A stretch of 64,000 bases of DNA, from assembly GCA_041660025.1 (NCBI GenBank), contig JBAZXD010000001.1:236162-300161 (forward strand), given 5' to 3'. Both the position numbers and the translations under genes were made by a program. The DNA comes from Minisyncoccota bacterium. GTDB lineage: Bacteria; Patescibacteriota; Minisyncoccia; Phycocordibacterales; Phycocordibacteraceae. Positions within the stretch are counted from its first letter, which is position 1. Each line of letters opens with the position of its first letter. A model generated the notes under the pieces. It saw nothing but the letters and a program-made list of their open reading frames with translations. It did no database searches and had not been told where the DNA came from. Below are positions 2,968-62,416 of the stretch, in pieces.

Positions 2968-3333
2968 ATGAAAATCTTTGTTGCCCATTCGAGCAATTTC
3001 GACTTTAAGAATAAGCTCTACGCCCCGCTCCGTAGTTCCGCGCTCAATACCGAGCATGAGATACTTCTCCCTCAGGAAGGGGAGATTGAAGAGATTACGC
3101 GGGAAATGATTAACGGTTGTGACGCAGTCGTGGCGGAGGTATCAGCGCCCTCACTCGGCGCCGGTATCGAGATCGGCTGGGCAGACGCCGCCGGCGTCCC
3201 GGTCATCGCTCTGTACGAGAAGGATGCGCACCCGTCATTCTCTATCGATAATGCCGTCACCGATCGTTTCGCATATGAGAACGCGGACGATATGCTCGAG
3301 AAGCTAGAAGCCGCTCTCAAAGAACTTCAATAA
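2968..3333 (+). CDS. nucleoside 2-deoxyribosyltransferase-like (NDT/DNPH1-fold) small protein
   Basis: 121 aa; CDAVVAEVSAPSLGAGIEIGWADAAGVPVIAL resembles the NDT-family DxGTxFExGyA...GKPV core. Confidence 0.55.
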   Translation: MKIFVAHSSNFDFKNKLYAPLRSSALNTEHEILLPQEGEIEEITREMINGCDAVVAEVSAPSLGAGIEIGWADAAGVPVIALYEKDAHPSFSIDNAVTDRFAYENADDMLEKLEAALKELQ

Positions 3334-3394: not shown

Positions 3395-3703
3395 ATGAGC
3401 AACAATCCATTTTTAAATGCCTTTGCGGCGACGGCGTATATCACCGGTATCGCGCTCGCGATGCGGTATGGGCCTAAGGGGCCCGGTGTGGACAGCAGTT
3501 TCATCGCGCCCATTGCCTTCCTCTCCCTCTTCGTTCTCTCCGCCGCGCTGATGGGCTACCTCTTCTTCTACCAGTCCGTCCGGCTCTTGATCGAGGGGAA
3601 ACAACAGGAAGCGGCGAAGTTCCTGTTCACGACCGTGGCGGTGTTCGCCTGCATCACGGGTGCATTTCTCATTGTGTGGCTTATCATCAGCACTCTGCTC
3701 TAG
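3395..3703 (+). CDS. small integral membrane protein (3 predicted TM)
   Basis: 102 aa, strongly hydrophobic. Confidence 0.5.
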   Translation: MSNNPFLNAFAATAYITGIALAMRYGPKGPGVDSSFIAPIAFLSLFVLSAALMGYLFFYQSVRLLIEGKQQEAAKFLFTTVAVFACITGAFLIVWLIISTLL

Positions 3704-3739: not shown

Positions 3740-4099
3740 ATGAACGAAGGGAAACCGAAAGATGAAAAAGTCGTTGACCTTACCGAACGTCAAAGGCAGG
3801 AAATGAATGCGAACAGACGGAAAAGTATAGAAATAACGTCCGAAGGGAGAATCCGGTATCCAGAAGAAGTCCTCGGGATAACGACACGTCAGGCAATAGA
3901 GATCGCCAAAAGGATCGTTGAAGACACTATTGATCTGGATGAGTCGAAGATTGCTTCACAGCGTGAATATATTTCCCTGTCTTCTGTTGGAGAAATACTT
4001 AAGGCGCTTGAACGTTATGAAAAATCCCCTGAATTGTATTCAAGAGAATATGCGCGTGCCATCGCTGAAGAATTAATGAAAAGGTTTCCAGCAAAATAA
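3740..4099 (+). CDS. hypothetical protein (island gene 5)
   Basis: 119 aa; GTTATAAT box at 3726-3733 places the TSS at the ATG. Confidence 0.5.
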   Translation: MNEGKPKDEKVVDLTERQRQEMNANRRKSIEITSEGRIRYPEEVLGITTRQAIEIAKRIVEDTIDLDESKIASQREYISLSSVGEILKALERYEKSPELYSREYARAIAEELMKRFPAK

Positions 4100-4107
4100 G
4101 GCTCTCT

Positions 4108-4136
4108 AAACGGCTCAGACCCCGTCTGAGCCGTTT
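4108..4136 (+). repeat. 29-bp perfect palindrome AAACGGCTCAGAC-CCC-GTCTGAGCCGTTT, copy 1 of 4
   Basis: 13-bp arms with CCC loop; identical copies at 5128, 38858 and 62327. Confidence 0.9.
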
Positions 4137-4276
4137 GAAACGCTCAGTTTTTATTTATGCGGCTTGATTCCATAGATAAAGAAACACTTGTCTTTTATGA
4201 AAGAAAGTTTATAGTGTGTCCAGGCCGCTGTGTGTAGTGGCAAAGATAACGTAGGAATAACCAAAAGGAGCACTGC

Positions 4277-5059
4277 ATGACACCAGAAAACCAGCAAAAT
4301 AAGGAGACAGGCTCCAAACACGTCGATATGGGGGTCGTCTACGACGCCTTTTCGGAGGCGTTCAGGGAGGCTGACCAACTGCCGACGTGGCGGTTCGCCG
4401 GGAAGCCGGCTATGGAGAAACTGCTGGGAGCCTCTTTCGGTTCCAACGCACGTTTCTTGGACTTGGGGTCCGCGAGCGCGCGCGTTGAGGCGGGAGTTCT
4501 GCTTCCCGCTGGCGTGCGTCCCGAAGAGATCACCGGCGTCGAGATTAGCCCGGAGCAAGTGGGGATGGCGAAAGCCCGAATCCCCGGGGCTATCTTCTTC
4601 GTGGGAGACATCACAGATGTGTCGTTGCTGTCTGACCAGTCGGGCGAGTACGACGTGGTGTTCTCGCATATGGTGTTCGAGCACCTCGACGATGCCCAGC
4701 TCGCATTGGCGTGCGCGAACGCATTCCGGCTCCTCAAGTCGAAAGGGACGTTCGCGTTCGTGGTAACCCATCCGGACAAAATGACCGACACGGAAGGGAA
4801 CCTGGTCACGACGTTCGGCGCATTCAAAACGACGGCGCCCTGGGGAGGCGAACTCCACAATTGGCGCAGGAGCGTCGAACAGACGCTCGATATCGTTGAA
4901 GGCGCGGGGTTCCAGTTGGAACTGGTCGAAGGAGTCCAGTTTCCTGAAGAACCGCCGGCTGATTTGAAGGCGGAGGACCTCGCAGCATTTCGCGAAGCGT
5001 CCAAGAAGTATCGAAAATATCCGGCCATCCGGCTCGCGGTAAAAGCAACAAAACCATAG
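4277..5059 (+). CDS. class I SAM-dependent methyltransferase
   Basis: Motif I LDLGSASA, GVEISPEQV, DVVFSHMVFEHL; AAAGGAG SD upstream. Confidence 0.75.
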   Translation: MTPENQQNKETGSKHVDMGVVYDAFSEAFREADQLPTWRFAGKPAMEKLLGASFGSNARFLDLGSASARVEAGVLLPAGVRPEEITGVEISPEQVGMAKARIPGAIFFVGDITDVSLLSDQSGEYDVVFSHMVFEHLDDAQLALACANAFRLLKSKGTFAFVVTHPDKMTDTEGNLVTTFGAFKTTAPWGGELHNWRRSVEQTLDIVEGAGFQLELVEGVQFPEEPPADLKAEDLAAFREASKKYRKYPAIRLAVKATKP

Positions 5060-5081
5060 GCTCAAAAGGCCGCGGACTCAG

Positions 5082-5110
5082 ACGGCGCTTCCGAGCGCCG
5101 TTCTTTTTTA
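5082..5110 (+). terminator. rho-independent terminator
   Basis: ACGGCGCT-TCCG-AGCGCCGT hairpin followed by TCTTTTTT. Confidence 0.7.
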
Positions 5111-5127
5111 ATCCGCCTACTACCATC

Positions 5128-5156
5128 AAACGGCTCAGACCCCGTCTGAGCCGTTT
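5128..5156 (+). repeat. 29-bp palindrome, copy 2
   Basis: Identical to 4108-4136; lies just after the terminator. Confidence 0.9.
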
Positions 5157-5185
5157 AACTTGGAAGCGAACCCTTTAAGTTTTAC

Positions 5186-5194
5186 TGATACAAT
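5186..5194 (+). promoter_or_regulatory. extended -10 TGATACAAT; ATG at 5201 is 7 nt downstream (leaderless)
   Basis: TGn-TACAAT box; no SD before the ATG. Confidence 0.45.
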
Positions 5195-5200
5195 CAGGTT

Positions 5201-5539
5201 ATGGCGACATACGAAGAGTTCCAGAAGATTGATATACGGGTGGGAAAGATTATCGAGATACAGGATTTCCCCGAAGCACGGAAGCCTGCGTATAAGTTAA
5301 AGATCGATTTCGGCTCCGAGGTAGGACTGAAGCAGTCAAGCGTCCAAGCAGTTGGCGCGCATACGAAGGAGGAGCTGTTGAACTCTCTTGTGTGTTGTGT
5401 GGTGAACTTTCCGCCCAAACAGATCGGCCCGTTCACGTCTGAGGTGCTCACGCTCGGTTTTATGAATAACGCGGGTGCTGGCTGGGTGCTTATCGAGCCC
5501 AAGAAGGGCTCGGTAGATCTGGGGAGCAGGCTCGCCTGA
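5201..5539 (+). CDS. csaA: tRNA-binding protein (CsaA/Trbp111-like EMAP domain)
   Basis: FQKIDIRVGKIIEI...KLKIDFG... matches the tRNA-binding OB-fold family. Confidence 0.75.
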   Translation: MATYEEFQKIDIRVGKIIEIQDFPEARKPAYKLKIDFGSEVGLKQSSVQAVGAHTKEELLNSLVCCVVNFPPKQIGPFTSEVLTLGFMNNAGAGWVLIEPKKGSVDLGSRLA

Positions 5540-6061: not shown

Positions 6062-6301
6062 GTGCCGTACTTTGTCTATCTGCTCGAGTGCGAGGATGGG
6101 TCTCTCTATACCGGCGTCACCACCGACGTGAAGCGGCGGTTTGCCGAACATAAAAGCGGGATAGGGAGCAATTTCACGCGGGCGAAGAAGGCGAAGCGCA
6201 TCGTGTATACGGAGGAGCACCCCGACCGGAGCTCGGCGCAGAAGCGCGAGGCCGAGATCAAGCGCTGGTCGCGCGAAAAGAAACTGGCTCTGGTACAATA
6301 A
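6062..6301 (+). CDS. GIY-YIG nuclease family protein (UPF0213/YhbQ-like)
   Basis: FVYLLECEDGSLYTGVTTDVKRRFAEH...E..IK motifs; alternative start codon at 6062. Confidence 0.8.
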   Translation: MPYFVYLLECEDGSLYTGVTTDVKRRFAEHKSGIGSNFTRAKKAKRIVYTEEHPDRSSAQKREAEIKRWSREKKLALVQ

Positions 6302-9861: not shown

Positions 9862-10197
9862 ATGAAAATATTTTTCCACTGGCTCATTTCGACTATCGCA
9901 ATCCTTATTGCGGCATATATCGTTCCGGGCGTCGCGGCGACTCCTGTCGGCGCGCTCATCGCCGCAGTCGTTCTTGGCGCGATCAACCTCTTCATCCGCC
10001 CGATCATCGTCATCCTCACGCTCCCGATAACCGTCCTCACGCTCGGTCTCTTCTCGCTTGTCATCAACGCGGCTCTGGTGCTTCTCGCCGCATATCTCGT
10101 GCCGGGATTCTTGGTCGCGGGCTTCTGGGCCGCATTCTTCTTCGCGCTCGTGCTCGCCGTCGTCAACTGGGTCTTCAATTCGTGGGGTCGTAATTAG
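9862..10197 (+). CDS. small 4-TM membrane protein, phage holin family 4 (DUF360)-like
   Basis: MKIFFHWLISTIAILIAAYIVPG...; TGGTATGAT box at 9847-9855 lies 7 nt before the ATG. Confidence 0.5.
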   Translation: MKIFFHWLISTIAILIAAYIVPGVAATPVGALIAAVVLGAINLFIRPIIVILTLPITVLTLGLFSLVINAALVLLAAYLVPGFLVAGFWAAFFFALVLAVVNWVFNSWGRN

Positions 10198-27006: not shown

Positions 27007-27082
27007 GGGCCCTTAGCTCATCTGGTAGAGCGCCTCATTTGCAATGAGGAGGTAAGCGGTTCAAGTCCGCTAGGGTCCACCA
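27007..27082 (+). tRNA. tRNA-Ala (TGC), CCA encoded
   Basis: G3:U70, acceptor GGGCCCT/AGGGTCC, anticodon loop TTTGCAA. Confidence 0.85.
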
Positions 27083-27153
27083 AAGTTTTTGATTACATTC
27101 GGCTTTCCAATCTGGGAATCTAATCGGATATCTGCTATGGTAAAGTTGTGCTC

Positions 27154-27227
27154 GCGCTCCTAGCTCAGTTGGTTAGAGCGTACGCTTCACACGCGTAAGG
27201 TCGCAGGTTCGATCCCTGCGGAGCGCA
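27154..27227 (+). tRNA. tRNA-Val (CAC)
   Basis: Acceptor GCGCTCC/GGAGCGC, anticodon loop TTCACAC. Confidence 0.8.
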
Positions 27228-27246
27228 CACGGGAGGTGTTCTGTGT

Positions 27247-27317
27247 CGGGCCGGAGTATGCCGGTAGTACGTACGATTCGGGTTCGTATAGACCGGGTTC
27301 GATTCCCGGCGGCCCGA
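27247..27317 (+). tRNA. tRNA-Pro (CGG)
   Basis: Acceptor CGGGCCG/CGGCCCG, anticodon stem TACGA/TCGTA with loop TTCGGGT. Confidence 0.75.
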
Positions 27318-27413
27318 CAGAGAACGTCTCCTAACGCGGGCTATAAGTAAGCTTGTATCTCCGCGTTCCGGAGAGAATAATCACGAGAAGACTCGTGTTA
27401 TTCTTCCTCCACG

Positions 27414-27484
27414 CGGGCTATCGTATAATGGTAGTACGCATGGCTGGGGGTCATGCAGCCTGGGTTCGATTCCCAGTAGCCCGA
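27414..27484 (+). tRNA. tRNA-Pro (GGG)
   Basis: Acceptor CGGGCTA/TAGCCCG, anticodon loop CTGGGGG. Confidence 0.75.
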
Positions 27485-27607
27485 TGAAAATAATTTTCGA
27501 GCGTGGTAGCATATTCCGCACGGGCCCGTATCTTCGCGGACTCGATACAGAACCCTCGTTCGGAGAAACTGAACGAGCGAAGACGTTCATTCAGTTTTCC
27601 TCACTTC

Positions 27608-27680
27608 GGGCCCGTAGCTCATCTGGTAGAGCGCGTCATTCGCATTGACGAGGTAAGCGGTTCAAGTCCGCTCGGGTCCA
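27608..27680 (+). tRNA. tRNA-Ala (CGC)
   Basis: G3:U70, anticodon stem CGTCA/TGACG with loop TTCGCAT. Confidence 0.85.
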
Positions 27681-27882
27681 CATAATAGGAAAGCGCAACA
27701 AAACGGCCACTTCTGGCTTGTACTTTCCCGCTGTGTGGTCTATTCTTGAAATAGCTCGGACTTTCGCCGCCGGTGGGGTGGTGGCGAGTACCTCTGCTGA
27801 AAACCGCAAAAGAGCCCGAGGAAACATCGGCTCGAACCGTGTAGTGTGAGGAAAAGAAAATTTCTTATTCATACAATTCAAT

Positions 27883-28515
27883 ATGAAACGAACTTTCAAA
27901 ATTGGTGGAGTAATAATACTTGTTTTACTTTTGAGCGGAGGTTTCATTCGTTGGTTTTTTTCTCCTTTTTTCACATCAGACGAATGTAAGTACTATCAAG
28001 AAAGACTTGCATCTAGAGCTTGTTATGCACTTGATGGCACAATAATACCTATTGCTGAACAGCCAGGCACCATGTTCACAATTCGTTATGATTACGCTTT
28101 CGGAATGGGACCGGGTTGGAGTGCGTACTCAGAAAAAGAATCTAACGGACAAGCACGGTTTTGGACCTATCTTAATCCCCACACAACACTCCCTATATCC
28201 ACCGACGGGACTCGGTATATTGCGCTCTACTATGTTGGCGACAATCAAAGCGGGAAAGATAATCTGTATTTAGGACTCTTTTCTCTTCCGACTTCCGCCA
28301 GAGGACCATTTACATATCAGGACGCGGTTCTTGTTGGAAGTGGTAAAAGAAGTCATTTATCCCACACCACTTTCGAACAGAGGAGTGATGGTGTGATACA
28401 AGTGTCTTACAAAGTAACTCGCTTTGTAGATGATGCTCAACCACAATTGCAGACTGTTCTAGAGGACACGGTGCTTTACCAGATAATTGGCGATAAAATA
28501 CAGGAAATTCAATAG
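27883..28515 (+). CDS. hypothetical signal-anchored/secreted protein in an AT-rich cassette within the tRNA cluster
   Basis: 210 aa; N-terminal TM GGVIILVLLLSGGFI. Confidence 0.5.
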   Translation: MKRTFKIGGVIILVLLLSGGFIRWFFSPFFTSDECKYYQERLASRACYALDGTIIPIAEQPGTMFTIRYDYAFGMGPGWSAYSEKESNGQARFWTYLNPHTTLPISTDGTRYIALYYVGDNQSGKDNLYLGLFSLPTSARGPFTYQDAVLVGSGKRSHLSHTTFEQRSDGVIQVSYKVTRFVDDAQPQLQTVLEDTVLYQIIGDKIQEIQ

Positions 28516-28748: not shown

Positions 28749-28824
28749 GGGCCCTTAGCTCATCTGGTAGAGCGCGTCCATGGCATGGACGAGGTGACCG
28801 GTTCAAGTCCGGTAGGGTCCACCA
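28749..28824 (+). tRNA. tRNA-Ala (GGC), CCA encoded
   Basis: G3:U70, anticodon stem CGTCC/GGACG with loop ATGGCAT. Confidence 0.85.
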
Positions 28825-38173: not shown

Positions 38174-38401
38174 CTTGACGAATTACTAAATTTCAGTAGC
38201 ATAAAGCCCAGGAGATTGGTAGCACATTGAGCCGGGAGTAATATCCCTTTCTGAAATCAAAAAAAGGAAGTCAAACATGTTCAATCCGTTCAGATGGTTG
38301 GATGGCATCTTATTGGGCACTGCACAGAAATTATGTGATAAACCCAACGAGTTATCGGTCTGACGAAATTTACGTTCGAAAAGTGGGCAGTAATACTATC
38401 G

Positions 38402-38803
38402 GTGTTATTCCACTGGGGGACTTATTTTTTCAGTCCGGTACTTGCCTTAGTCGTCCCGCTTTTAATGTACGCCACTGGTGGGGCGTTCCTGGTACGCAGT
38501 ATTGAAAGAAAGGAAGCTGAGTTCTTGAAAAATGGGAACTTTGTGCAGCCTTTTTTTGATATGCCAGTGAGAGTCGCGATTCTCATCGGTATTGGTTCTT
38601 TGGCGACTGTGAATTTTGTTTCGGCGGACTTCGGGAATAATGTATTGTCATATGGGCAAATCAGCTATATCGCATGTGCATACTTTGATGCTTGTATTCC
38701 GCGGCCGCCGAGCAAGAGCAAGGTGCGGGAGTTGTACGAAAAGGGGCTATGGTGGCTGAATGATAAGCTCCAACCAGCGCCTCTTCCCGAGACCAATCAA
38801 TAA
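38402..38803 (+). CDS. hypothetical membrane protein in an AT-rich cassette (alternative start codon)
   Basis: 133 aa; hydrophobic; overlapping ORFs in other frames upstream make the start uncertain. Confidence 0.35.
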   Translation: MLFHWGTYFFSPVLALVVPLLMYATGGAFLVRSIERKEAEFLKNGNFVQPFFDMPVRVAILIGIGSLATVNFVSADFGNNVLSYGQISYIACAYFDACIPRPPSKSKVRELYEKGLWWLNDKLQPAPLPETNQ

Positions 38804-38827
38804 TCCGTTTCTCGTCTCAACTTCACG

Positions 38828-38854
38828 TCCCCGCCTTGTGCGGGGATTTTGTTT
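38828..38854 (+). terminator. rho-independent terminator
   Basis: TCCCCGC-CTTGT-GCGGGGA then TTTTGTTT. Confidence 0.75.
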
Positions 38855-38857
38855 ACC

Positions 38858-38885
38858 AAACGGCTCAGACCCCGTCTGAGCCGTT
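38858..38885 (+). repeat. 29-bp palindrome, copy 3 (last base diverged)
   Basis: AAACGGCTCAGACCCCGTCTGAGCCGTT then C. Confidence 0.85.
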
Positions 38886-38916
38886 CGGGGGGTTGCCGTA
38901 TCGCCCTTTTCCTGTG

Positions 38917-38925
38917 TGGTATAAT
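38917..38925 (+). promoter_or_regulatory. extended -10 TGGTATAAT; ATG at 38934 (leaderless)
   Basis: Exact consensus 9 nt before the ATG. Confidence 0.5.
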
Positions 38926-38933
38926 GCAGGCAT

Positions 38934-39905
38934 ATGGACAAACCCAAAACAACAGCAAAGGATTTCTTCTTGTGGGCGGGGGCGATGGTGACCTTCTACT
39001 GGAGCGTCATTGCGTTCGTTCTCCTCACGTTCGATTACATCAACTACACGTTCCCGAATGTGCTGAGCTATTACCCGGCCGACCCGTACCAGAGCGGCAT
39101 CAGCTACGAGATGGCGTCGGTCATTGTTCTTCTGCCGATCTATATGCTGCTTATGTGGCTCATCCGTAAGGATGCTTTCGTGGATACATCAAAAAAGGAA
39201 ATATGGGTGCGCCGCTGGGCGATCATCCTCACGCTCTTCGTCGCCGGCATCGCCGTGGCCGCCGACCTCATTACTCTGCTTACCACCTTCCTCAACGGAG
39301 AGGCGCTGACGACCGCATTCCTCCTCAAAGTGCTCATCGTCTTCCTCGTTGCGGTGGGAGTATTCCTGCACTTCATCGCAGATCTGAAGGGCTACTGGGA
39401 CGCGTTCCCGCTCCGGAAACGTGCGGTCTGTAGCGGTGTAGCGGTCCTCGCTCTTGCCACGATAATCGTCGGCTTCTTCATCGTCGGTACGCCGGCGGAG
39501 GCGCGCCTCGCGCGCTTCGACGCAGAGAAGGTGATTGACCTTCAAAACATCCAGTCGCAAGTTGTGTATTACTGGCAGGCGAAGCAGAAGTTGCCGGCGG
39601 CGATTACCGACCTCGAAAACTCTCTCGCATACGGCCCCTTACCAGTCGATGCTCAAACAGGAGAATCGTATGTGTATCAGGCGACCGGAGCACTCTCGTT
39701 CAAGCTCTGTGCAGACTTCAACGCGGCGAGCCGCGCCAATCCAAGCGCTCTTACGGAGACTCGTCCCGTTGAACCGGTTCCGGTTGGTGTCGGCGGCAAG
39801 GACGTCATGATGCAAGTCGACAACTGGCAGCACAGCGCGGGACAGGTCTGCTTCGACCGGACCATCGACCCGAGCTTCTATCCGCCGCTTACCAAGCAAC
39901 CGTAA
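38934..39905 (+). CDS. hypothetical multi-TM membrane protein
   Basis: 323 aa; N-terminal half strongly hydrophobic. Confidence 0.55.
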   Translation: MDKPKTTAKDFFLWAGAMVTFYWSVIAFVLLTFDYINYTFPNVLSYYPADPYQSGISYEMASVIVLLPIYMLLMWLIRKDAFVDTSKKEIWVRRWAIILTLFVAGIAVAADLITLLTTFLNGEALTTAFLLKVLIVFLVAVGVFLHFIADLKGYWDAFPLRKRAVCSGVAVLALATIIVGFFIVGTPAEARLARFDAEKVIDLQNIQSQVVYYWQAKQKLPAAITDLENSLAYGPLPVDAQTGESYVYQATGALSFKLCADFNAASRANPSALTETRPVEPVPVGVGGKDVMMQVDNWQHSAGQVCFDRTIDPSFYPPLTKQP

Positions 39906-39929: not shown

Positions 39930-42338
39930 ATGGCGTACGACCATACAGACATCGAGAAAAAGGCCCAGGAGAAATGGGCCTCTCTCGATTTATACAAGTC
40001 TGACCTTTCGGATGAGTCGAAGGAGCCCTACTACCTTCTCGTCGAGTTCCCGTACCCCTCGGGCGACCTGCATATCGGGCATTGGTACGCCTTCGCCGTG
40101 ACCGACATCTACGCGCGGATGCTGCGCGCGCGCGGGAAGAACGTACTGTTCCCGATTGGCTTCGACGCGTTCGGCCTACCGGCCGAGAATGCCGCCATCA
40201 AGCACGGCGTCGACCCGAAGGAGTGGACGTATAAGAACATCGAGCGGATGCGCGAACAGCTCGCCTCGATGGGCCCGTCGTTCGACTGGAGCAAGGAGGT
40301 CCTCACCTGCGACCCGGGCTACTACCAGTGGACGCAGTGGCTCTTTGCCAAGCTCTTCGAGCACGATCTTGCCGAGCATAAGAGTGCAGCGGTGAAGTGG
40401 TGCCCGAAGGACCAGACCGTGCTCGCGAATGAGCAGGTGGTCGACGGCCGTTGCGAGCGTTGCGGCACCGAGGTGGAGGAGAAAAAGCTGACGCAATGGT
40501 TCCTGAAGATCACCGACTACGCCGAACGCCTTCTTGAAGGATTGGAGAAATTGCCGTGGCGCAATGAGATAAAAGACGCTCAGCGCGCGTGGATAGGGAA
40601 GAGCGATGGCGCATATCTCGAATTCCAAATCGTCGGGCGCGAAGAAAAAATAAAAGTGTTCACCACGCGGCCGGACACCGTTTTCGGCGCCACCTATGTC
40701 GTGCTCGCGCCCGAGCACGCGCTTGTTTCATCACTGTTGGACGGCGTTTCAAATAAGAAAGAGATCGAGGAGTATGTGCGTACGACCGCGCAGAAGACCG
40801 AGCGCGAACGGAGCGAGAATAAAGAGAAGACCGGCGTGAAGCTCGAGGGCGTTTCAGCGATAAACCCAGCGACAAAAGAAGAAATCCCAGTCTACGTCGC
40901 CGATTACGTCCTCGCCTCCTACGGCACGGGCGCGGTGATGGCCGTCCCCGCCCACGACGAACGCGATTTTGAATTCGCACAAAAATTCGATTTGCCGATA
41001 CAGGAAGTCGTTTCCGCCGAGGGAATGCAGATCCCCTATACTGGCATCGGCACGCTTACCAATTCGAGTGAGTTTACCGGTAAGAACAGCGAGGAGGCGA
41101 AGTGGGACATCGTGAAGTATGCGGGCGGGGAGAAGGCGACTCAGTACCGCATCCGCGATTGGCTCGTGAGCCGCCAGCGCTATTGGGGATGCCCGATACC
41201 CATCGTCTACGACCCGGAGGGGAAGCCGCACGCGATACCTGCCGAGCATTTGCCCTGGCTCCTGCCGACGGATGTCGACTTCACGCCAACGGGCAAGGCG
41301 CCGCTCGCATCCTCACAAGAATTGCAGGAGCGCGTGGTGCGCATTTTCGGCGAGGGCTGGACGCCGGAATACGATACGCTCGATACCTTCATCGACTCCT
41401 CGTGGTACTTCCTCCGCTATCTCGACCCGAAAGATTCGCACGATTTTTCCGATGTGGCGCTGATGAAGAAGTGGTTGCCGGTCAATCGCTACTCGGGCGG
41501 GAGCGAGCACACGACGATGCACCTCCTCTACGCGCGATTCTTTATGAAGGCGCTCTACGACCTCGCGCTTGTGCCGGTGGAAGAGCCGTTCACTGAGCGC
41601 TTCAACCGCGGGCTCGTTATGGGCCCCGACGGGCAGAAGATGAGCAAGTCGAAGGGGAACGTCGTGAATCCGGACGAATTCGTACAGAAGTACGGCGCGG
41701 ACGCGGTGCGTGTCTTCCTTGCATTTATCGGCCCCTACAACGAGCCGGGGAGCTATCCCTGGAGCCTCGACGGCGTCGCTTCGATGCGTAAGTTCCTTGA
41801 GCGCGTGGCTAGAATGGTCGGAATTGTACAGGGAGCACAAGGGATTCTTCGCACACTAGGGAAAGAAATAAATCATAAACCGATAGATCCATTAATTGCT
41901 GCAACGGTCAAAAAAGTTGCTGAAGATGGCGACCGCTTCAAATTTAATACAGGAGTGGCTGCTCTGATGAGTCTTCTAAATGAGATGGAGATCTCATCTC
42001 AAGTATCACTCTCGAATGTTCGCGACTTTGTCATCATGCTCGCGCCTTTTGCGCCACACCTCGTCGAACACCTCTGGGAACAGCTTGGTGGGGAAGGGAG
42101 TGTTCATCAGCAGTCGTGGCCCATCTTTGACCCGAGTCTACTTATCTCGAGTACTGTGAATGTCACAGTGCAGGTCAATGGCAAGCGTCGCGGTTCGATT
42201 ATTCTTCCGGCAGACGCTCCAGAAGACAGCGCCATCGCAGAAGCTCTCAAAATTCCTGTCGTGACGGCCTCATTCACCGGTAAAGAACCAAAGCGAGTTG
42301 TGTACGTACCAAATAAAATAATTAATCTCGTTGTATAA
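39930..42338 (+). CDS. leuS: leucyl-tRNA synthetase
   Basis: HIGH (GDLHIGH), KMSKS (QKMSKSKGNVV), full-length class I homology; the last ~500 nt are AT-richer. Confidence 0.97.
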   Translation: MAYDHTDIEKKAQEKWASLDLYKSDLSDESKEPYYLLVEFPYPSGDLHIGHWYAFAVTDIYARMLRARGKNVLFPIGFDAFGLPAENAAIKHGVDPKEWTYKNIERMREQLASMGPSFDWSKEVLTCDPGYYQWTQWLFAKLFEHDLAEHKSAAVKWCPKDQTVLANEQVVDGRCERCGTEVEEKKLTQWFLKITDYAERLLEGLEKLPWRNEIKDAQRAWIGKSDGAYLEFQIVGREEKIKVFTTRPDTVFGATYVVLAPEHALVSSLLDGVSNKKEIEEYVRTTAQKTERERSENKEKTGVKLEGVSAINPATKEEIPVYVADYVLASYGTGAVMAVPAHDERDFEFAQKFDLPIQEVVSAEGMQIPYTGIGTLTNSSEFTGKNSEEAKWDIVKYAGGEKATQYRIRDWLVSRQRYWGCPIPIVYDPEGKPHAIPAEHLPWLLPTDVDFTPTGKAPLASSQELQERVVRIFGEGWTPEYDTLDTFIDSSWYFLRYLDPKDSHDFSDVALMKKWLPVNRYSGGSEHTTMHLLYARFFMKALYDLALVPVEEPFTERFNRGLVMGPDGQKMSKSKGNVVNPDEFVQKYGADAVRVFLAFIGPYNEPGSYPWSLDGVASMRKFLERVARMVGIVQGAQGILRTLGKEINHKPIDPLIAATVKKVAEDGDRFKFNTGVAALMSLLNEMEISSQVSLSNVRDFVIMLAPFAPHLVEHLWEQLGGEGSVHQQSWPIFDPSLLISSTVNVTVQVNGKRRGSIILPADAPEDSAIAEALKIPVVTASFTGKEPKRVVYVPNKIINLVV

Positions 42339-42339
42339 T
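42332..42339 (+). promoter_or_regulatory. -10 TGTATAAT overlapping the leuS stop codon; downstream ATG at 42346
   Basis: TAA stop (42336-42338) lies inside TATAAT. Confidence 0.4.
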
Positions 42340-42345
42340 CACTCC

Positions 42346-42948
42346 ATGAATACAACCCAAAAGGGTTTCGCGAGTGTTGTTTTAATTATCGCTCTAGTCA
42401 TCATCATTGTGGGTTGGTTGGGCTATTTTGAATTAACACAAAAATCGAGTGTTACTACAACCTCTAGCCCAGAAAAAAGTCAGTCAACGAAGGAAGACCA
42501 AGAAATACCCTGGAAAGAGTACGTCAATCTCGACTTTGGCATATCCTTTTCTCATCCAGACAGCTGGCAGTGCAAAACTTATAAGACAAACCTCTTTCAT
42601 CCAGATTGGTATCAAACAATCTGTGATGATGATGGCACATGGTCGGGGGACTCATTGGTAGCCATTTCGGTACCGCACACCACGAACACCCGATCGCTTG
42701 GGGTTAGCACAATTCGCAGCGGGACAATCACGGGGCAAAATTCATCTACAATCACGAAAACCATTTACCATTCTGATAAATTTGAAGATCTGGGCTCGGT
42801 TGCATATATCTTTAGCGGATCTTCGAACATGAAGAGCTATGATATGGGCGCTATGTATGGTGGCCTCGATAAACCATACAGGAGCGCTGAAGAAGCCGAG
42901 GATGTCTTGGATACCATTGCTAAATCTCTCATCATTCGCTCAAATTAA
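42346..42948 (+). CDS. hypothetical signal-anchored/secreted protein in the AT-rich segment
   Basis: 201 aa from MNTTQKGF; N-terminal TM. Confidence 0.5.
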   Translation: MNTTQKGFASVVLIIALVIIIVGWLGYFELTQKSSVTTTSSPEKSQSTKEDQEIPWKEYVNLDFGISFSHPDSWQCKTYKTNLFHPDWYQTICDDDGTWSGDSLVAISVPHTTNTRSLGVSTIRSGTITGQNSSTITKTIYHSDKFEDLGSVAYIFSGSSNMKSYDMGAMYGGLDKPYRSAEEAEDVLDTIAKSLIIRSN

Positions 42949-42971: not shown

Positions 42972-43094
42972 CACCGCCGCCGGCTAGAGCTGGCCGAGGC
43001 GCTCAAGATACCGGCTGTCACGGTCGCCATCGACGGGAATGAGCCGAAGCGGGTTATTTATGTGCCGGGCAGAATCCTAAACCTTGTGGTATAA
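42972..43094 (+). pseudogene. leuS: displaced remnant of an alternative leuS 3' end
   Basis: Translates ...LAEALKIPAVTVAIDGNEPKRVIYVPGRILNLVV* versus the leuS C-terminus IAEALKIPVVTASFTGKEPKRVVYVPNKIINLVV*; in-frame TGA upstream. Confidence 0.65.
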
Positions 43095-43103
43095 TCCGCG
43101 CTA

Positions 43104-43132
43104 TTGACTCTTTATAAGGCATTTGCTATAAA
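43104..43132 (+). promoter_or_regulatory. sigma70-like promoter TTGACT-17-TATAAAT
   Basis: Consensus spacing; the ATG of the next gene at 43142 is ~3 nt after the predicted TSS. Confidence 0.5.
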
Positions 43133-44221: not shown

Positions 44222-44228
44222 TATTCAT

Positions 44229-44272
44229 ACACAAACGGCGTCCCGCGCATAGCGGGACGCCGTTTGTGTTTG
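44229..44272 (+). terminator. long-stem rho-independent terminator
   Basis: CACAAACGGCGTCCCGC-GCATA-GCGGGACGCCGTTTGTG then TTTGCT. Confidence 0.7.
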
Positions 44273-46704: not shown

Positions 46705-47142
46705 ATGCAAGAAAATCAGAATGAGAATGTTTTCTACGGGATATATAACTCCGGGAAAATGTCGATAAATCTCGAAAGTGCCGAACCGTTCTTCAAAGCT
46801 CTTAATAGAGTTTTACATATCTACATCGTCCCGTGTTCTGTGATTGAACGCTTTAACCATGGACCTGGATGTGGGCTCGTCGTAGATATGGCGCGATACC
46901 GGATGGAACGGCGTAAATATGTAATGTACATTGCGGAAGATTTGCCACATTCCGAACGGCTCATCACAATAGCCCACGAATTGATTCATCTGATACTGAC
47001 GATGCAGGGGTTTTCGTTTGAGCGCCAATGGCTTGATGAAAAGAGTGAGCCGTGGATAGAGGAAATAGCTAAGCGGTTTTACCAAGCAAACCCTAACTTC
47101 CTGAATTGGGTGTATAGAGATTACGTGAGAATCGCCGGTTGA
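46705..47142 (+). CDS. HExxH metallopeptidase-like protein (ImmA/IrrE-like?) in an AT-rich cassette
   Basis: ITIAHELIHLIL zinc-binding motif; 145 aa. Confidence 0.4.
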   Translation: MQENQNENVFYGIYNSGKMSINLESAEPFFKALNRVLHIYIVPCSVIERFNHGPGCGLVVDMARYRMERRKYVMYIAEDLPHSERLITIAHELIHLILTMQGFSFERQWLDEKSEPWIEEIAKRFYQANPNFLNWVYRDYVRIAG

Positions 47143-62277: not shown

Positions 62278-62290
62278 GTATTTTACAAAA

Positions 62291-62318
62291 GCAAAAACCG
62301 CCGCAAGGCGGTTTTTGC
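62291..62318. terminator. bidirectional rho-independent terminator after rpsI
   Basis: GCAAAAACCGCC-GCAA-GGCGGTTTTTGC. Confidence 0.8.
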
Positions 62319-62326
62319 TTTTGCCG

Positions 62327-62353
62327 AACGGCTCAGACCCCGTCTGAGCCGTT
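62327..62353 (+). repeat. 29-bp palindrome, copy 4 (first arm base diverged)
   Basis: GAACGGCTCAGACCCCGTCTGAGCCGTTT. Confidence 0.85.
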
Positions 62354-62416
62354 TGACGTTAAGCTTTATTAAGGTAAGGTGGCGGCAGAACGGGACTGTT
62401 TCCCAAGGAGATCCAG

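Follow-up and report, generated by a model that had tools for sequence, protein, structure and literature searches.

A short palindrome, named P here, recurs four times in a 64,000-nucleotide (nt) stretch of the genome of a Minisyncoccota bacterium (the window; assembly GCA_041660025.1, contig JBAZXD010000001.1, positions 236,162 to 300,161 of the forward strand). P may well belong to a family of small, dispersed palindromic repeats of the same kind as repetitive extragenic palindromes (REPs), present in a subset of Paceibacteria (Patescibacteria, or Candidate Phyla Radiation, CPR); confidence in this reading is evenly balanced. It is favoured because P is found only between genes, its paired arms are invariant, its centre can flip, gains are lineage specific, decayed copies exist and P borders accessory genes.

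As a 29-mer, P reads AAACGGCTCAGAC-CCC-GTCTGAGCCGTTT (that is, AAACGGCTCAGACCCCGTCTGAGCCGTTT). Its four window copies, P1 to P4, follow one another at distances of 1, 34 and 23 kb, all with CCC on the + strand and between + strand genes:

P1, 4108..4136: exact 29-mer with loop CCC (+), 8 nt past the stop codon (4097-4099) of a low-GC 119-aa gene and ~52 nt upstream of a methyltransferase promoter

P2, 5128..5156: exact 29-mer with loop CCC, after the methyltransferase terminator and 32 nt upstream of the -10 box of a CsaA-like gene

P3, 38858..38886: outermost-pair mismatch, loop CCC, between the terminator of an inserted small gene and the -10 box of a DUF5671 gene

P4, 62326..62354: outermost-pair mismatch, loop CCC, 2 nt past the rpsI terminator palindrome and 62 nt upstream of a 137-aa membrane-protein gene

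An earlier note on this DNA had described four perfect copies with one loop orientation, each following a + strand gene. Orientation and gene strand hold for 4/4 copies; exactness holds at two sites (4108-4136 and 5128-5156), and the copies at 38858-38886 and 62326-62354 each carry one mismatch in the outermost pair. The distance of 15-30 nt from a terminator, claimed for copies 2-4, is right for copy 2 (~19-25 nt) and too long for copy 3 (~3 nt past the T-run) and copy 4 (2 nt), and the gap between the stop codon and copy 1 is corrected from 9 to 8 nt. The alternative CTGAGC/GCTCAG pairing of copy 1, followed by a T-tract, is present in the sequence as described, but the predicted fold retains the palindrome hairpin.

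The family consensus exceeds the 29-mer: it is CCAAACGGCTCAGAC-NNN-GTCTGAGCCGTTTGG (33 nt), extended outwards as CCAAACGG...CCGTTTGG, with the flank consensus CCAA/TTGG. The architecture consists of perfect 13-15 bp arms and a 3-nt centre, for a total of 29-33 bp; an alternative 13-7-13 reading has 13-bp inverted arms and a 7-bp asymmetric core (CCAAACGGCTCAG-ACCCCGT-CTGAGCCGTTTGG). Predicted hairpin stability ranges from -20.5 kcal/mol (29 nt) to -26.4 kcal/mol (33 nt). P is not expected by chance (expectation 0) and has no match in 100 dinucleotide-preserving shuffles of the window. The 9-mer half-site GGCTCAGAC occurs at eight sites in the 64 kb, all paired within the four copies and none in genes. 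No second repeated palindrome exists in the window, where the remaining palindromes are individual terminators. One of them (44226-44272), with 20-bp arms (CATACACAAACGGCGTCCCGCG...CGCGGGACGCCGTTTGTGT), has an outer AAACGGC/GCCGTTT in common with P; the rest of it is unique, and it probably serves as an ordinary terminator in both directions. Gathering-score matches to Rfam in the window are tRNAs only, and those around P are at chance level (E >= 0.18).

A sequencing adapter or assembly artefact was considered and rejected: P is intergenic only, comes from independent projects (JGI, ENA Hainich, Logan and NCBI metagenome-assembled genomes, MAGs) and is conserved at orthologous positions. Among the loci and contigs compared with the window (L-numbers below), the independently assembled Logan contig L047 (SRR18595301) is 100% identical to window 3838-5157 and terminates at P2, so the layout P1-methyltransferase-P2 is unlikely to be an assembly artefact of the window.

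The arms of P are constrained, and its centre is free and able to flip. Orthologues of P3 are found in L003, L036 and L037, the last two chosen independently of the palindrome through homologues of the downstream DUF5671 protein (90% and 88% protein identity, respectively). Across P3 and these three orthologues, variable columns amount to 0/24 in the arms, 3/3 in the centre and 19/48 in the adjacent spacer (Fisher p = 1.3e-4). The centres in this set are CCC, CTG, GGG and CCC, and flipped centres separate orthologous copies twice (CCC in the window versus GGG in L036; CCC in L005 versus GGG in L010). Base pairing is preserved through compensatory changes. A second copy on contig L010, the variant CAAATGGCTCATAC-CCC-GTATGAGCCATTTG, contains two compensatory double changes and is located 14 nt past a gene whose L009 homologue precedes a canonical P; canonical P and this variant thus share contig L010. 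Furthermore, the three outer pairs covary (AU, CG, GC, GU), and all five measures exceed those of all 500 shuffles and all slid controls.

Distribution beyond the window was assessed with the exact core ACGGCTCAGAC-NNN-GTCTGAGCCGT in a single genome scan and a single metagenome scan. The core is present in two MAGs that represent GTDB species (a Patescibacteria group bacterium and a Doudnabacteria bacterium), with one exact copy per whole MAG, and on 27 JGI/ENA metagenome contigs with one copy each, corresponding to ~19 distinct loci. All carriers are Patescibacteria-like, and P is intergenic at 4/4 window copies and at all ~21 distinct loci. Divergence among the carriers is deep, with 77% identity between the EF-Tu proteins of L001 and L014 and a locus G+C of 45-59%. 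The centre is mostly CCC or GGG, with CTG/CAG in L003 and L011 and GAG in L014. Usually, P lies 0-26 nt past a stop codon or just past a resident terminator, upstream of the next promoter; its gene contexts are tandem, convergent (L004, L014) or divergent (L007). Several Logan contigs end in or at P, which suggests that P is multi-copy in those samples. Family diversity is under-sampled because most copies were found by the exact-match pattern. A relaxed outer-arm pattern (AACGGCTCA-N3-20-TGAGCCGTT) matches 24 viral contigs, with inner sequences that all differ; since these matches resemble generic terminators, the outer arms alone are not diagnostic, and two 'variants' in L042 were dropped from the family. 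A phage or plasmid origin was also rejected: the exact core is absent from IMG/VR, and the 33-mer is absent from INPHARED phages and PLSDB plasmids. No description of a dispersed palindromic repeat family, mobilising enzyme or uptake sequence for CPR/Patescibacteria was found in the searchable literature.

P turns over between close relatives. At the ychF/DUF5671 site, it is present in the window, L003, L036 and L037, and absent from the more distant L030, L043 and L045. At the LeuRS (leucyl-tRNA synthetase)/sigma-70-like site, L021 carries a perfect copy and L045 one with a single mismatch, and P is absent from L043, L030 and the window (~43095), where the empty site is as follows:

43086..43104: P-free spacer that separates the sigma-70-like gene from the gene before it; the orthologous spacers of L021 and L045 have ~77 extra bases that include P

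Since presence differs between the two sites, different lineages gained P at different sites. Decay takes several forms: a single substitution in L045, a 2-nt deletion in L022, a remnant made of the left arm, the centre and 3 nt in L038, and a collapsed copy 40 nt from an intact P in L005.

Often, P also marks the edges of acquired genes. In the window, the features concerned, listed with the terminator next to P4, are:

3740..4099 (+): 119-aa low-GC gene without Pfam family, between gene X (3395-3703) and P1

4137..5127 (+): module between P1 and P2, with its own promoter, a class I S-adenosylmethionine (SAM) methyltransferase gene and its own terminator

4188-4215 (+): methyltransferase promoter TTGTCT-16-TATAGT, within this module

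4277-5059 (+): class I SAM methyltransferase gene

5081-5102 plus T-run (+): methyltransferase terminator

38178..38857 (+): ~680 bp low-GC insert that L003 and L037 lack, directly to the left of P3

38402-38803 (+): small gene in this insert with almost no homologues; terminator at 38829-38854

62286-62323: rpsI terminator, an extended palindrome ending 2 nt before P4

The interval from gene X to a GIY-YIG gene (6062-6301) has three states across L016, L038 and the window. They are listed here with a further arrangement from L022:

L016: X, P, GIY-YIG

L038: X, half-P, methyltransferase, hydrolase, NUDIX, 127-aa gene, P

Window: X, 119-aa low-GC gene, P1, methyltransferase, P2, CsaA-like, AAA kinase, GIY-YIG

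L022: decayed P, DNA methylase fragment, P

In L016 and L038, the palindrome is immediately 3' of the stop codon of gene X. Three modules, including P1-methyltransferase-P2, have P at both ends. Homologues of the methyltransferase gene in L039 and L042 sit in unrelated contexts, which indicates that the gene moves between genomes. At P3, the left outer arm is the family consensus CCA, formed by the last bases of the 680-bp insert, where orthologues have CG or TG; the right outer arm is of the orthologue type, hence the A/C mismatch. This suggests that P3 may be a hybrid site, generated by crossover within the palindrome with a donor copy, although very few bases bear on it.

Accessory genes adjoining P elsewhere encode the restriction enzyme Tsp45I (L023), DNA methylases (L002, L022, L010/L005), Fic proteins (L007, L010), NYN and MazG-like proteins (L010) and a RelE-like toxin-antitoxin pair (L006). 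Core genes adjoin P as well (tuf, rpsI, pilB-ruvB and ftsA), and low-GC genes are also inserted at P-free window sites (27883-28515, 42331-42948, 46705-47142). The association with accessory genes is therefore suggestive and not proven. Site-specific insertion at the left edge of P, considered on the basis of two junctions, was down-weighted: at the two window insertions, the upstream gene and P are separated by just 0-11 nt, which leaves a viable insertion no place other than next to P, and selection thus partly forces the junctions. All-against-all BLASTP of locus open reading frames found no neighbouring gene shared by P loci beyond synteny, and P is not found near the sole homologue (38% identity, L048-L050) of the small gene next to P3.

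These properties bear out the earlier proposal of a repeated intergenic palindrome of the REP kind: other genomes also have P, invariably between genes; copies appear, disappear and decay, and the pairing is maintained. The proposed strand rule, by contrast, does not generalise, because outside the window the loop and the gene have the same direction in ~10 cases and opposite directions in ~8, and orthologous copies have flipped loops. A purely 3'-untranslated RNA element fails too, as copies 2-4 lie past a separate terminator and P is also found between divergent (L007) and convergent (L004, L014) genes. Nor is there support for many copies genome-wide, as the note expected from four in 64 kb; the two GTDB MAGs with P have one exact copy each. 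The suggested search for a REP-associated tyrosine transposase (RAYT) gave neither a RAYT nor another transposase in the window or among annotated genes adjoining P elsewhere.

Among known systems close to P are the REPs and REPINs of Proteobacteria, which are mobilised by RAYT, an IS200/IS605-like Y1 HUH transposase. Like P, they are short GC-rich palindromes, intergenic and typically just after genes, with several dispersed copies, presence varying between relatives, decayed copies, no coding capacity and a hairpin as the likely recognised form. P departs from classical REPs in its perfect stem, its lack of GTAG, its singletons, its low countable copy number and its arms identical across deep divergence. 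REP/REPIN stems are imperfect and preceded by a conserved 5' GT[AG]G tetranucleotide, whereas the stem of P is perfect and flanked by CCAA/TTGG. REPs are arranged as doublets (REPINs) or bacterial interspersed mosaic elements (BIMEs), whereas P occurs as singletons, the only close pair being the decayed and intact copies 40 nt apart in L005. REP/REPIN copies number tens to hundreds per genome, compared with four in 64 kb here and one exact copy in each of the two MAGs. REP genomes carry a RAYT gene typically flanked by REPs, whereas P has no RAYT among ~40 window and ~40 neighbour proteins. Bacterial palindrome-associated transposable elements (PATEs), of the IS200/IS605 type, offer a second parallel: like P1-methyltransferase-P2 and the L038 module, they place two like-oriented hairpins around non-transposase cargo. 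The two ends of a PATE, however, differ from each other, each an imperfect hairpin with a defined cleavage tetranucleotide, whereas P modules have the same perfect palindrome at both ends and no TnpA is seen.

Several of these facts weigh against membership of a REP-like family. Pfam scans of the ~40 window and ~40 neighbour proteins found no HUH/Y1 transposase, RAYT or recombinase; the two whole MAGs in which copies could be counted have few, one exact copy each; the hallmarks of REPs (5' GTAG-type tetranucleotide, imperfect stem, doublet REPIN/BIME arrangement) are missing; and, REPs being as a rule confined to one species, it is unusual that the arms of P stay identical between lineages with 77% EF-Tu identity. 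That most copies come from an exact-match pattern, with the under-sampling that this entails, counts on the same side. If the REP-like reading is correct, P would act as a hairpin in single-stranded DNA (or RNA), and a trans-acting enzyme, encoded outside the window, would recognise and spread it; the closest model would be a hairpin-recognising enzyme of the HUH/RAYT type. Transcripts of genes directly followed by P may in addition gain a stable 3' hairpin from it. With its 30 bp common to several genomes, P could also serve as portable homology for accessory-gene exchange.

The bracketed modules invite another explanation, of low but appreciable probability, in which P would be the crossover site of a cassette-exchange system, comparable with lox/dif, plasmid pdif modules or integron attC. 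Two copies would be joined by a recombinase whose gene lies elsewhere, and small gene modules would thereby be inserted, excised or swapped. Core sites of tyrosine recombinases (lox/dif-like) have 11-13 bp inverted arms and a 6-8 bp asymmetric crossover region, and P can be read in this way as 13-7-13. Modules lie between two directly oriented copies in the window (P1-P2) and in L038 (half-P...P, same loop), the relative orientation in L022 being unreadable, and one copy is decayed in three bracketed modules, as expected if intact direct repeats excise. Moreover, P3 resembles a hybrid whose left outer arm comes from a donor and whose right outer arm is resident, and gene content next to P is changed in 5/6 comparisons with relatives. 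Known sites (loxP 13-8-13, dif/pdif 11-6-11, attC) share with P the inverted arms, the short asymmetric centre that gives polarity and the ability to bracket small gene modules. However, compared with lox/dif sites, only the 3 central bases of P are asymmetric, and no recombinase was found in the window or adjoining any copy. The four direct copies bracket essential genes (ATP synthase, ribosomal proteins), which an active site would delete, and the two window insertions (119-aa gene, 680-bp insert) have P on one side only, unlike the products of reciprocal site-specific recombination. Low-GC accessory genes at P-free sites (42331-42948, 46705-47142, 27883-28515) and junctions partly forced by selection (0-11 nt gap) weaken this explanation further. 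An integron attC was rejected: such sites are 55-140 bp long and imperfect, with R''/L''-L'/R' boxes and extrahelical bases, and form arrays beside an intI integrase or derived from one, whereas P is 29-33 bp long and perfect, has no extrahelical bases and flanks that misfit RYYYAAC/GTTRRRY, its window copies are 1, 34 and 23 kb apart, and no integrase is present in the window.

A broader version, slightly less probable again, would make P the capture and crossover site of gene-cassette exchange among divergent Paceibacteria, with an integron-like function without an integron. The agent would be an unlinked recombinase or HUH enzyme, or else cruciform breakage followed by homology-anchored repair after natural transformation. 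Its cargo would consist of methyltransferases, restriction-modification genes, toxin-antitoxin genes and small genes of unknown function.

Clearly unlikely is the view that P is a transcript 3'-end hairpin only, either an unconventional bidirectional terminator or an mRNA-stabilising stem-loop, conserved through recognition by an RNA-binding protein or ribonuclease. It accounts for the 14 of ~20 tandem contexts in which P lies 0-26 nt past a stop codon with no other terminator (e.g. L003, L009, L016, L020, L021, L025, L037 and window P1), for the very stable stem flanked by AAA/TTT, and for the pairing kept by compensatory changes; loop flips would be tolerated because the RNA stem is the same in either orientation. 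On the other hand, the T-run after the stem is no longer than 2-3 nt, and a scan for terminators lists the neighbouring true terminator and not P. A canonical rho-independent terminator (at least 5 T in the 8 nt after the hairpin) is excluded, as only TT or TTT is present. In the window, P2-P4 each lie between a canonical terminator and the promoter of the next gene, and are probably little transcribed: P2 is ~19-25 nt past its terminator and P3 ~3 nt past the T-run of its own. Past P2, a near-leaderless gene for a tRNA-binding (CsaA-like) protein has the -10 box TACAAT (5189-5194) and its ATG at 5201; past P3, the near-leaderless DUF5671 gene has the -10 box TATAAT (38920-38925) and its ATG at 38934. 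The copy in L007 lies between divergent gene starts. Finally, a generic terminator needs no conserved sequence, and gain, loss, decay and two-copy modules are left unexplained.

It is more improbable still that a dimeric protein binds P as duplex DNA, be it a regulator of transcription or a chromosome organiser of the ParB/Noc/MatP kind, with the central 3 bp uncontacted. The symmetric, strictly conserved arms, the free spacer and the orientation independence are in line with such a site, as are the low copy number per genome, the local cluster of four in 64 kb and the two window copies that end 32-34 nt upstream of a -10 box. Against this, the distance from P to the downstream -10 box varies from 19 to ~85 nt, copies between convergent genes (L004, L014) have no promoter expected, downstream genes are mutually unrelated, and presence differs between close relatives at orthologous promoters. 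The canonical and doubly compensated forms that coexist in L010 would not both be read by one protein if positions matter, and the 13 bp conserved per half-site go far beyond the needs of a regulator. The controlling inverted repeat of chaperone expression (CIRCE; the HrcA operator, TTAGCACTC-N9-GAGTGCTAA) is a long inverted repeat with an unconstrained spacer, low copy number and presence in distant lineages, like P; CIRCE, however, occupies fixed promoter positions in one regulon (groE, dnaK), whereas the genes beside P are unrelated, its distance from them varies, and copies are gained and lost. The SOS box, CIRCE, parS, dif and matS do not match P in sequence or spacing.

Highly improbable, lastly, is a role of P in the natural transformation of CPR bacteria, as a signal for uptake or recombination of DNA comparable with the inverted pairs of the Neisseria DNA uptake sequence (DUS) that double as terminators. 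In its favour are the identical sequence in divergent lineages that may share a gene pool, the inverted-repeat pair downstream of genes, the borders of horizontally acquired modules and the PilB gene that adjoins one copy (L012). CPR bacteria carry competence genes, and the Neisseria DUS (GCCGTCTGAA) has GTCTGA and GCCGT in common with the P half-site GTCTGAGCCGT. Against it, P is far too sparse, with one copy every 16 kb in the window and a single exact copy in each of the two MAGs, whereas known uptake sequences occur about once per kb, in both orientations, as single sites in coding and non-coding DNA. Isolated half-sites and sites inside genes are absent from the window, and the searchable literature gave no support. 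Neisseria DUS inverted pairs are, like P, inverted repeats of a conserved 10-13-mer downstream of genes, found across species and with no linked transposase, but P is ~10-1000 times less dense, with no single half-sites and none in coding DNA.

The genome around P offers further observations. The window has ~57% G+C, with nearly all genes on one strand, and contains dnaX, uvrABC, the ATP synthase operon, ychF, leuS and ribosomal protein genes; the closest relatives of its proteins are labelled Candidatus Paceibacterota, Kaiserbacteria or Patescibacteria. The -10 boxes past P2 and P3 exemplify a wider pattern, in which TGgTATAAT or TACAAT is just 6-8 nt 5' of a start codon (window 38920-38936 and 5189-5203, also L021, L030, L043 and L045); the best-conserved part of these spacers (window, L021, L030, L043, L045) is the -10 region, and the genes concerned are probably leaderless. 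The methyltransferase gene, for its part, keeps a conserved promoter and a ~60-nt 5' leader (GTGTCCAGGC...) in the window (4214-4276), in L038 (~215-271) and upstream in L039 and L042; this leader matches no Rfam family.

Small low-GC genes (39-44% in a 57% GC genome) occur at 1511-2889, 27883-28515, 42331-42948 and 46705-47142. Most lack a Pfam family and none is next to P; one is PsbP_2-like and one Peptidase_M78-like. Those at 42331-42948 and 46705-47142 are absent from the syntenic regions of L030, L043 and L045, and such genes are probably recent acquisitions. The gene at 27883-28515 lies between a tRNA cluster (27007-27681, six tRNA genes: Ala, Val, Pro, Pro, Ala) and a further tRNA-Ala (28749-28824). 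LeuRS has 802 aa in the window (39930-42338) and 944-1134 aa in relatives (L030:11013-14417, L043:1341-4175), where Ser_hydrolase and/or NUDIX domains are present between the synthetase halves; free-standing Ser_hydrolase and NUDIX genes are found inside the P-bracketed module of L038 (1167-2406).

Other loci display small modules of their own. In L006 (2956-3640; cf. L025:1849-1893) and L030 (~9880-9930), small inserted modules are flanked by an imperfect ~27-30 nt duplication of the 3' end of the upstream gene: a RelE-like toxin-antitoxin pair after a SIMPL gene in L006, and two small genes after ychF in L030. These look like att-type integrations into gene 3' ends, with no integrase in the insert. 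A membrane-anchored winged-helix family (…DVQALLGVSDATAERYL…) is encoded at L009:538-939, L010:12484-12870 and L042:843-1139 and 1213-1800; its gene directly precedes P in L009 and the compensated variant in L010, and it has no homologue in the window. An unusual 529-aa fusion of a LexA DNA-binding domain, Peptidase_S24 and an N6/N4 DNA methylase is encoded in L010 (7612-9201, - strand), with a homologue in L005 (3599-5149, - strand). A second palindrome family, CTATTCTAGTATTTTGCAAAATACTAGAATAG and variants, occurs in unrelated Patescibacteria contigs (L010:6381-6418 and 3296-3330; L005:2648-2690; L048:1780-1815); one L010 copy is just 5' of an ArsR-like helix-turn-helix gene, and this family is probably an operator.

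CPR/Patescibacteria genomes are tiny, and P would represent a dispersed palindromic repeat family in such a group. In practice, P breaks short-k-mer assemblies and is a convenient marker of hot spots of gene-content variation in Paceibacteria MAGs. A 30-bp hairpin that is identical across 77% EF-Tu identity needs a specific recognition partner. Once found, this partner could reveal a route of accessory-gene exchange in reduced, probably naturally competent, symbiotic bacteria.

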